Below are positions 43,126 through 43,446 of a DNA stretch of 43,714 bases, piece after piece. The notes below the pieces were generated by a model. The model had not been told where the DNA came from. It saw only the letters and a list, made by a program, of their open reading frames with translations, and ran no database searches. Position 1 is the stretch's first letter; each line of letters begins with the position of its first letter. The position numbers and the translations under genes are program-made. The stretch comes from a virus: UHGV virus genome UHGV-0175557. One strand, written 5' to 3'.

Positions 43126-43146
43126 GTAAATGGGGCACTATGGCCC
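43126..43146 (-). promoter_or_regulatory. conserved 5'-UTR hairpin copy 1 (GGGGCCATAGTGCCCC on minus strand), about 20 nt upstream of the polymerase ATG
   Basis: 21-bp segment identical to 43426-43446. Confidence 0.5.
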
Positions 43147-43155
43147 CGTTTTCAG

Positions 43156-43410
43156 TTATGAACGCTTATTAACCCATTCATTATATAACCGATCACTTTC
43201 TTCTTTTGTAGAAGCGCGTGCAAATCGCCATCCGTAACCGTTTTGCACTTCATACGCGAAATAAAATTTACCAAAATTTTCACGGGAAGTTCTTAAAACG
43301 CTATTAAATCTTTTTTGAATCACTCCGTGTTTCTTTACGTATGACAATTGGTCTTTTAAAGATAATTTTTCAAACATTTCTTGTTCTTGTACAAATTGTT
43401 CTTGATTCAT
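43156..43410 (-). CDS. hypothetical protein (84 aa)
   Basis: ATG 43410 with GAGG 8 nt upstream; the track start at 43437 is GTG and lies inside the hairpin. Confidence 0.5.
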   Translation of the reverse strand: MNQEQFVQEQEMFEKLSLKDQLSYVKKHGVIQKRFNSVLRTSRENFGKFYFAYEVQNGYGWRFARASTKEESDRLYNEWVNKRS

Positions 43411-43425
43411 CTTATACCTCGTTGA

Positions 43426-43446
43426 TAAATGGGGCACTATGGCCCC
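43426..43446 (-). promoter_or_regulatory. conserved 5'-UTR hairpin copy 2
   Basis: Identical 21-mer TAAATGGGGCACTATGGCCCC (plus-strand reading). Confidence 0.5.

Follow-up and report, generated by a model that had tools for sequence, protein, structure and literature searches.

The virus genome UHGV-0175557, whose 43,714 nucleotides we call the window throughout, carries two identical short hairpins on its minus strand. One lies downstream of the gene for a gp2.5-like single-stranded DNA-binding (SSB) protein and the other upstream of the DNA polymerase gene, and between them lies an open reading frame (ORF) for an 84-aa protein, ORF84. A first-pass annotation took the hairpin for an operator shared by two consecutive replication genes, and suggested translational autoregulation (as with the T4 RegA or gp32 operators), an RNase III processing site or an attenuator. 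Here we describe a different origin for the repeat. We consider it probable that this locus holds one regulatory hairpin, doubled by an accessory-gene cassette, and that the hairpin most likely serves as a leaky terminator or attenuator or as a stabiliser of the 3' end. The repetition itself appears to be the footprint of the gain or loss of the cassette, and comparison with related phages gives no evidence for a shared operator.

The hairpin is already known as an annotated terminator-like intercistronic element; its duplication is what marks the cassette. Identical hairpins before neighbouring genes, then, need not mean co-regulation; here they would be the borders of a recently mobile accessory gene.

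A repeated hairpin around an accessory gene

The 21-mer TAAATGGGGCACTATGGCCCC occurs exactly twice on the plus strand of the window, at 43127-43147 and 43426-43446. The pair of identical hairpins described earlier is borne out, with the first copy lying one base from where it had been placed (43126-43146). No third copy is found in the window at up to three mismatches, and 100 dinucleotide-preserving shuffles gave no match to the 21-mer; the repeat is real and chance is excluded. Read on the minus strand, either copy is GGGGCCATAGTGCCCC followed by ATTTA, and both stand about 20 nt ahead of a start codon, just as had been reported: the end of the hairpin core is 20 nt from the ATG of ORF84 (43410) and 22 nt from that of the polymerase gene (43109).

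The stem consists of five base pairs, all GC (GGGGC/GCCCC), and closes a loop of six nucleotides. In the SSB-proximal copy (copy A), two A-U pairs can extend the stem to seven base pairs (AUGGGGC/GCCCCAU). Folded in a 36-nt context, copy A reaches -12.1 kcal/mol (z = -2.8) and the polymerase-proximal copy (copy B) -10.2 kcal/mol (z = -2.4). Longer-range pairings in the folds are weak and differ between the two copies. A search of 42900-43714 against Rfam 15 at permissive E-values returned best matches of E 1.3-8, far under the gathering scores and at chance level. We dismissed a mini-ORF inside copy A (AUG GGG CCA UAG): it has no Shine-Dalgarno (SD) sequence and is not in copy B.

What do related phages carry at this locus? 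The window is a Sashavirus, a 9NA-like siphophage. Over this region its identity to Salmonella phage Sasha, E. coli phage AVIO78A and other Sashavirus genomes is 96-97%, falling to 81-86% for SP-062/SP069 and for Klebsiella phages, Carvaje among them; 9NA is more distant. A single hairpin copy stands between the SSB and polymerase genes in all 24 GenBank relatives. The flanks of ORF84 are adjacent, inside a 72-nt stretch, in each of the 24 matching records, and none of them encodes ORF84 by tblastn. These counts run counter to the idea of an operator shared by two replication genes. Read directly, the Sasha sequence is "...aaacagacatGGGGCCATAGTGCCCCATTTActtatcagggttttattATG": one hairpin, with the upstream flank of copy A and the downstream flank of copy B. 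Sasha positions 39700-39720 align to both copies in the window.

Set beside Sasha, the window is the Sasha sequence plus a 299-bp unit (ribosome-binding site, ORF84, trailer and second 21-mer), with a 21-bp direct repeat at its borders. The repeat leaves the bounds of the unit ambiguous, and 43148-43446 is as valid as the interval given in Table 1. The second copy exists only because the cassette sits there, flanked by the repeat, and the copies are identical because they mark a duplication junction, not two operators kept alike by selection. Recombination would have its junction at the direct repeat: the cassette may have come in at the hairpin by this route, or it can be lost precisely through an exchange between both copies. 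Copy A keeps the upstream surroundings of the native site (the SSB cistron's 3' end), and copy B keeps the downstream ones (the polymerase leader).

The cassette is real, since sequence variants of it occur in independent ENA, Logan and IMG/VR assemblies. An identical ORF84 protein is encoded on nine further contigs from several ENA samples, with the same two flanking genes; these genes also enclose a one-residue variant in a Logan assembly and a further copy in an IMG/VR contig. The cassette-bearing metagenome contigs, about ten in number, are scattered among cassette-free genomes. Counted over 590 nt at the start of the polymerase gene and 150 nt at the end of the SSB gene, UViG_038444, which has the cassette, shows 7 differences to PJ16, which lacks it, and 12 to the window, which has it, so that the cassette states interleave. 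This pattern indicates a presence/absence polymorphism in a recombining population.

ORF84 had been counted as a replication gene, an assignment that finds no backing: the protein has no known link to replication and no match in Pfam, PHROG or NCBIfam. A fold search with its AlphaFold model (pLDDT 82.5) returned no significant match. The search for a donor in a set of 5.8 billion proteins retrieved only ORF84's own cluster, and exhaustive HMMER searching found three small homologues, 33-37% identical, in Seuratvirus-type and queuosine-gene contexts without the hairpin.

An exact-pattern scan for the 21-mer gave no genome match; in viral and metagenome collections it gave the same phage group plus two unrelated short contigs. 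These contigs, L090 (Ga0209459_10115225, 392-412) and L094 (Ga0172380_10266215, 818-838), hold the exact 21-mer, extended to 24 nt in L094, within unrelated flanks. They have no shared context and no Rfam match, and they stand at about the level of chance, which we estimate at roughly one match for a pattern of 20 specified bases in a collection of that size.

Was the cassette gained or lost? Because 9NA, the Carvaje-type Klebsiella phages, SP-062 and the distant IMG/VR contig L030 are all without ORF84, we infer that a gain in one Sashavirus sub-population would be more parsimonious than many independent losses. The opposite history, in which the two-hairpin arrangement is ancestral and the cassette was deleted precisely, time and again, from all the other phages through the 21-bp repeats, would leave the function of the hairpin unchanged. 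Direct repeats 299 bp apart would be a good substrate for such deletion, which would restore the exact Sasha allele, and the interleaving of cassette-bearing and cassette-free genomes by flanking-gene distance would suit it too. Nevertheless, we regard this history as unlikely. It calls for losses in each of the lineages just named, where the alternative needs one gain and then spread by homologous recombination, and the other relatives of ORF84 are found only in unrelated Seuratvirus-type phages.

The hairpin between the SSB and polymerase genes

On the minus strand the locus runs from the 3' end of the SSB gene through 42 nt of spacer, counted from the stop codon, to copy A with its ATTTA, a 15-nt leader and ORF84; 8 nt past the ORF84 stop come copy B with its ATTTA, a 17-nt leader and the polymerase gene. 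In the Sasha/9NA-like phages, one minus-strand operon holds the SSB and polymerase genes, and where the cassette is absent the conserved 80-nt spacer between them contains GGGGC-CAUAGU-GCCCC and then AUUUACUUAU. We propose that on the polycistronic mRNA this hairpin would act as an inefficient intrinsic terminator or attenuator, or as a stem-loop that protects the 3' end. It would thereby set the ratio of abundant SSB to catalytic polymerase by lowering the latter. SSB is required in stoichiometric amounts. No sigma70-like promoter was found on the minus strand at 43100-43500, either by scan or by manual inspection. With no promoter between the hairpin and the polymerase gene, polymerase must come from read-through transcripts, and since an essential downstream gene has no promoter of its own, termination must be partial. 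ORF84 would be co-expressed with SSB because the copy with the better U-rich tail comes after it.

The anatomy of the site is that of an intrinsic terminator in several respects: a stable, GC-rich stem-loop lies downstream of a stop codon on the transcribed strand. The hairpin is annotated as a terminator in the Sasha record (the annotations of KX987158/MZ726797 are computational only), the call in AVIO78A comes from TransTermHP and WebGeSTer, and a consensus scan also flags it as terminator-like. An attenuator had been among the first suggestions, and this part of it fits both the anatomy and the Sasha and AVIO78A annotations; what fails is the step from repetition to a common operator. The U-tract is AUUUACUUAU at copy B and at the native site, and AUUUAUCAAC at copy A. 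With 5 T in 8 as the scan threshold, the tail of copy B qualifies. The tail, written AUUUACUU, is where 3' ends would be expected if the terminator is leaky.

Distant polymerase loci are consistent with a terminator at this position. In L030 the polymerase is 58% identical and the SSB gene likewise lies directly upstream; at the same position an unrelated stem, CGCCC-UACG-GGGCG, is followed by UUUUU and forms a canonical terminator. The upstream motif AACTGGGAyrAyAUACC is also present in L030. When the upstream motif was scanned for as AACTGGGAYRAYATACCRC, the known relatives, L030 and four unrelated contigs came back, the last at about the number that chance predicts for this information content, and no new diverged homologues. 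Canonical terminators also stand 20-35 nt ahead of the polymerase start at no fewer than three other distant polymerase loci (L054, L072 and L073). Variation within the cassette-bearing contigs bears on the same question. Copy A is invariant in all of them, but one lineage has a G>A in copy B that breaks the stem (GGGAC in L003 and L009, with one pair lost), and L004, where the downstream flank is PJ16-like, has a C in the copy B loop. This contrast hints that the SSB-side role may be the one under selection.

Several points weigh against a leaky terminator doubled by a gained cassette. The U-tract is poor and interrupted. By a d'Aubenton-Carafa-type formula, used for relative ranking only, the hairpin lies between -19 and -33. 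Of five other window terminators scored, three range from +3 to +39 and two are negative as well (-13 and -19); L030 has +8. The tail score of the hairpin is 1.7-2.35, and those of three of the same five terminators are 3.2-4.8. The other window terminators examined have a GC stem of 6-7 bp, often a 6-nt loop, and mostly a clean U-run, for example CCCCGGAACUAACCGGGG followed by UUUUAUUU. After the insertion, the tail of copy A falls below the scan threshold on the minus strand. The loop and the entire spacer are more conserved than a terminator needs. RNAalifold applied to 11 relatives found a compensatory change in none of 21 predicted pairs, the sequences being too similar to give a covariation signal. 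With regard to the cassette, precise loss through the 21-bp repeat would leave no trace, so the direction of change can only be inferred, and a donor locus for ORF84 with the same hairpin was not found in the protein and pattern searches. Weighing all of this, we still consider a leaky terminator or attenuator, or a 3'-end stabiliser, between SSB and polymerase the most likely function, judging from sequence comparison.

How conserved is the spacer? We aligned it across 16 phages of Sashavirus, Nonanavirus (9NA), Carvajevirus and the unclassified Klebsiella phages, and 9-10 of its 80 columns are variable. In the adjacent polymerase gene, 77 of 100 third codon positions vary and 13 of 101 second positions (Fisher p ~1e-19). 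Hairpin variation in the relatives is confined to the last loop base, which is U or C only, and to one C>U that keeps a G.U pair (L010). In 9NA the spacer is retained although the polymerase gene diverges from its first codon. A lack of conservation in relatives would have counted against the first-pass annotation; the hairpin is kept in every close relative aligned. A possible closing helix around the spacer, UGAUAG/UUAUCA, is invariant, so it is uninformative.

The spacer between the polymerase gene and gp61 (41214-41252) is 39 nt long and has no hairpin; its flanking coding DNA differs by about 17% among the Sasha-like and Klebsiella-phage relatives. As a control it proves about as conserved as the SSB-polymerase spacer, with about 4 of 40 columns variable. 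Because this hairpin-less control is equally conserved, the conservation of the SSB-polymerase spacer is not diagnostic either way, and the notion of an ultraconserved spacer as a special element is weakened. The intergenic spacers of the replication operon appear in general to be under strong constraint or to be homogenised.

The foremost competing function is that of a translational operator, in which the hairpin and leader are bound by the polymerase itself (as in T4 and RB69 gp43) or by SSB, repressing polymerase translation; the duplication would have kept this element before the polymerase gene. Its geometry resembles the gp43 operator, with a 16-nt hairpin 22 nt before the AUG and then an A/U-rich leader with an SD sequence. 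Only one loop position varies, the weakly family-B-like polymerase recalls gp43, and the insertion left a complete hairpin beside the polymerase leader. In L030 the only SD sequence (AAGGAG) lies 5' of the hairpin, so that hairpin formation would affect polymerase initiation. A bound operator sits poorly with other features of the same loci. The hairpin sequence of L030 is wholly different despite the 58% identity of its polymerase; conversely, 9NA has the same hairpin and a strongly diverged polymerase N-terminus. The copy that breaks its stem in the L003/L009 lineage is copy B, the one before the polymerase gene. The loop is CAUAGU or CAUAGC, not of the gp43 -UAAC-/-UAAA- type, and the hairpin-less control spacer matches the conservation of this one. 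By analogy with gp43, we would give the operator a small but real chance.

The L030 leader deserves description in its own right. At 1425-1492 of this contig (IMGVR_UViG_3300036785_000282), there is no SD sequence between the hairpin and the polymerase AUG, and the AAGGAG is partly drawn into the extended stem. This arrangement suggests a split or occluded ribosome-binding site, as far as the predicted pairing goes.

Could the element instead act as DNA, with no RNA role? The conserved spacer with its palindrome would then bind a protein, serve as a replication origin or as a signal for single-strand initiation, or simply be a recombination linker at a module boundary. The 80-nt spacer is constrained about as strongly as second codon positions, another spacer of the operon is similarly conserved, and the 9NA polymerase diverges abruptly at its ATG, as expected of a recombination breakpoint at a conserved boundary. 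We find this quite improbable all the same: the window shows no iterons, no AT-rich unwinding region and no further copies of the motif, and a hairpin of different sequence at the same position in L030 fits an RNA structure better than a sequence-specific DNA site.

Least probable of all are an RNase III site and the target-site duplication of a transposon-like or integron-like cassette, which have in their favour only a hairpin between cistrons and a direct repeat around the insert. RNase III requires about two helical turns (~20 bp) of double-stranded RNA, and the stem here is of 5-7 bp, which makes the processing site proposed earlier implausible; Rfam gives no match either. We rejected a transposon target-site duplication: neither terminal inverted repeats nor a transposase or integrase is present in the 278-bp insert, and 21 bp is far above the typical length. 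An integron was rejected as well, there being no attC-type core and no recombinase.

Neighbouring genes and other repeats in the window

The features of the locus are collected in Table 1. The polymerase shows weak similarity to family B polymerases.

Table 1. Features of the SSB-polymerase locus and of the promoter-like repeat, in window coordinates
Feature	Position	Strand	Basis or remark
gp2.5-like SSB / ssDNA-annealing protein gene, 3' end	43489..43714; stop TGA 43489-43491	-	annotation of NC_047786, Bas82, PDP46
5' part of conserved SSB-polymerase spacer, with motif AACTGGGACGATATACCGC at 43460-43478	43447..43488	-	motif also in distant relative L030
Hairpin copy A, SSB-proximal	43426..43446; core 43431-43446; 7-bp extended stem 43429-43448	-	upstream flank is the native Sasha SSB-polymerase spacer
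299-bp unit: 15-nt leader with SD GAGG (43417-43420), ORF84, 8-nt trailer, second 21-mer	43127..43425	-	window versus Sasha alignment
ORF84, 84-aa accessory protein	43156..43410; ATG 43410, stop TAA 43156-43158	-	ORF call
Hairpin copy B, polymerase-proximal	43127..43147; core 43132-43147	-	downstream flank is the native Sasha polymerase leader
Polymerase leader 3' of hairpin B, CTTATCAGGGTTTTATT, SD AGGG at 43117-43120	43110..43126	-	sequence
DNA polymerase gene, 618 aa	41253..43109	-	phrog_1252, E 2.8e-214
Seven-copy promoter-like repeat	~2459-2503, 4651-4695, 6847-6891, 12211-12255, 14434-14478, 16203-16247, 19776-19820 (+ coordinates)	-	sequence

The SSB gene leaves the window within a 30-nt coding tandem repeat. 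Both ends of the window, 1-118 and 43630-43714, are perfect coding tandem repeats (21 nt x5.6 and 30 nt x2.8), which are the probable reason that the assembly broke at these points. In SSB, the 30-nt repeat codes for a linker of PTPAAAPVAA type, and the copy number and sequence of this repeat vary among the relatives.

Other repeats occur at a distance from the locus. A minus-strand repeat in seven copies, TTAAAATAATTCTTGAC(R)-17 nt-TAnnnT, resembles a sigma70 promoter with an UP-like A/T block and would drive the small gene clusters on that strand. At 2427-2546 a copy comes immediately after a canonical terminator, and together they make a terminator/promoter unit like the promoter-early stem-loop (PeSL) cassettes of T4-type phages (Arbiol et al. 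2010, PMC2839356; Comeau et al. 2014, PMC4122927). A 4.36-kb block (2501-6863) that is missing from Sasha is bounded by 27-nt copies of this promoter repeat. Conversely, the extra genes gp02, gp06 and gp43 of Sasha are inserted at terminator hairpins or terminator/promoter junctions (window ~2006-2012, 8748-8755 and 27700; compared with Sasha, L101). Gene gain and loss at regulatory hairpins and promoters thus appears to be a general pattern in this phage group.

Another hairpin core, CCCGGAACTAACCGGG, is present in two identical copies 26 kb apart (2509-2524 and 28472-28487), each with a U-tract; both look like bona fide terminators. In the non-coding region at 700-1220, upstream of the small terminase gene, a 7-5-7 palindrome (TAGTGCA-TGTTG-TGCACTA and variants) is found at least six times, in part with a spacing of 63 nt. 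A block of about 120 nt is duplicated 19 kb apart (905-1005 versus 19924-20022) and includes 41 identical bases. The palindromes and the duplicated block could be binding sites for a regulator, in a regulatory or origin region.

Comparison with known systems

Which known system does the hairpin resemble? The T4 analogies offered at first do not hold up well. Control of the gp32 type acts at the 5' leader of the SSB's own gene, whereas the hairpin here lies 3' of the SSB gene. RegA operators, for their part, are unstructured (PMC3014915). A better T4 analogue than either would be the polymerase operator of T4 and RB69 gp43, a hairpin of 16-18 nt upstream of, and running into, the ribosome-binding site (PMC3014915). 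The two have in common a 16-nt hairpin ahead of the polymerase ribosome-binding site, an adjoining single-stranded leader and a place in a replication cluster. They differ in the loop and in the phage family, which is unrelated, and the polymerase here is only weakly family-B-like; moreover, the hairpin also lies directly 3' of the SSB cistron.

An intrinsic terminator is matched by the GC-rich stem-loop just past a stop codon on the transcribed strand, with a U-rich stretch after it. The differences are the interruption of that stretch and a score under those of three of the five other scored terminators of the phage.

The origin of the duplication has its closest parallel in the PeSL cassettes. 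In phage RB49, ORFan192 lies between two stem-loop regulatory repeats, phi1 has one repeat and no ORF, and recombination between repeats inserts or excises the ORF (Arbiol et al. 2010, PMC2839356). The PeSL stem-loop is a G-tract/C-tract hairpin thought to attenuate transcription, and PeSLs border the polymerase gene in RB49 and phi1 (PMC2839356). At the locus described here, direct repeats likewise surround an ORFan, a single element without the ORF stands in Sasha and 23 other records, the GGGGC/GCCCC stem is itself a G-tract/C-tract stem-loop, and recombination between repeats explains gain and loss alike. There are differences. The 21-nt repeat has no sigma70 early promoter and no upstream AT-rich block, its two copies sit at one locus instead of being dispersed in large numbers, and the host of the element is a siphovirus, not a T4-type myophage. 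The dispersed role is filled by a different family (D2, seven copies), and it is these units (terminator, UP element and TTGAC-17-TAnnnT) that are the fuller PeSL-like elements of the window. By this analogy, the duplication would behave like a PeSL-mediated indel, but the repeat is not a PeSL.

A more elaborate proposal would join the two comparisons. The 80-nt spacer with its hairpin could be a dual-purpose RNA element, both the 3' end of the SSB mRNA and a protein-bound polymerase operator, in which only insertions that duplicate the hairpin are viable; a bare, promoterless 21-nt stem-loop would also be enough for PeSL-style capture and excision in siphophages. We put this forward as speculation, with rather low expectations of it.

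The idea that short regulatory stem-loops serve as safe points for recombination was developed for T4-type myophages (PMC2839356, PMC4122927). The 9NA-like phages would add a siphophage example in which presence and absence have both been sampled in nature, the insertion of a cassette being an ordinary route of gene gain and loss in phages. Their SSB-polymerase spacer is a compact and strongly conserved candidate element for attenuation or translational control, and in the window it appears to have served, much as the stem-loops of RB49 do, as the border of an accessory gene.

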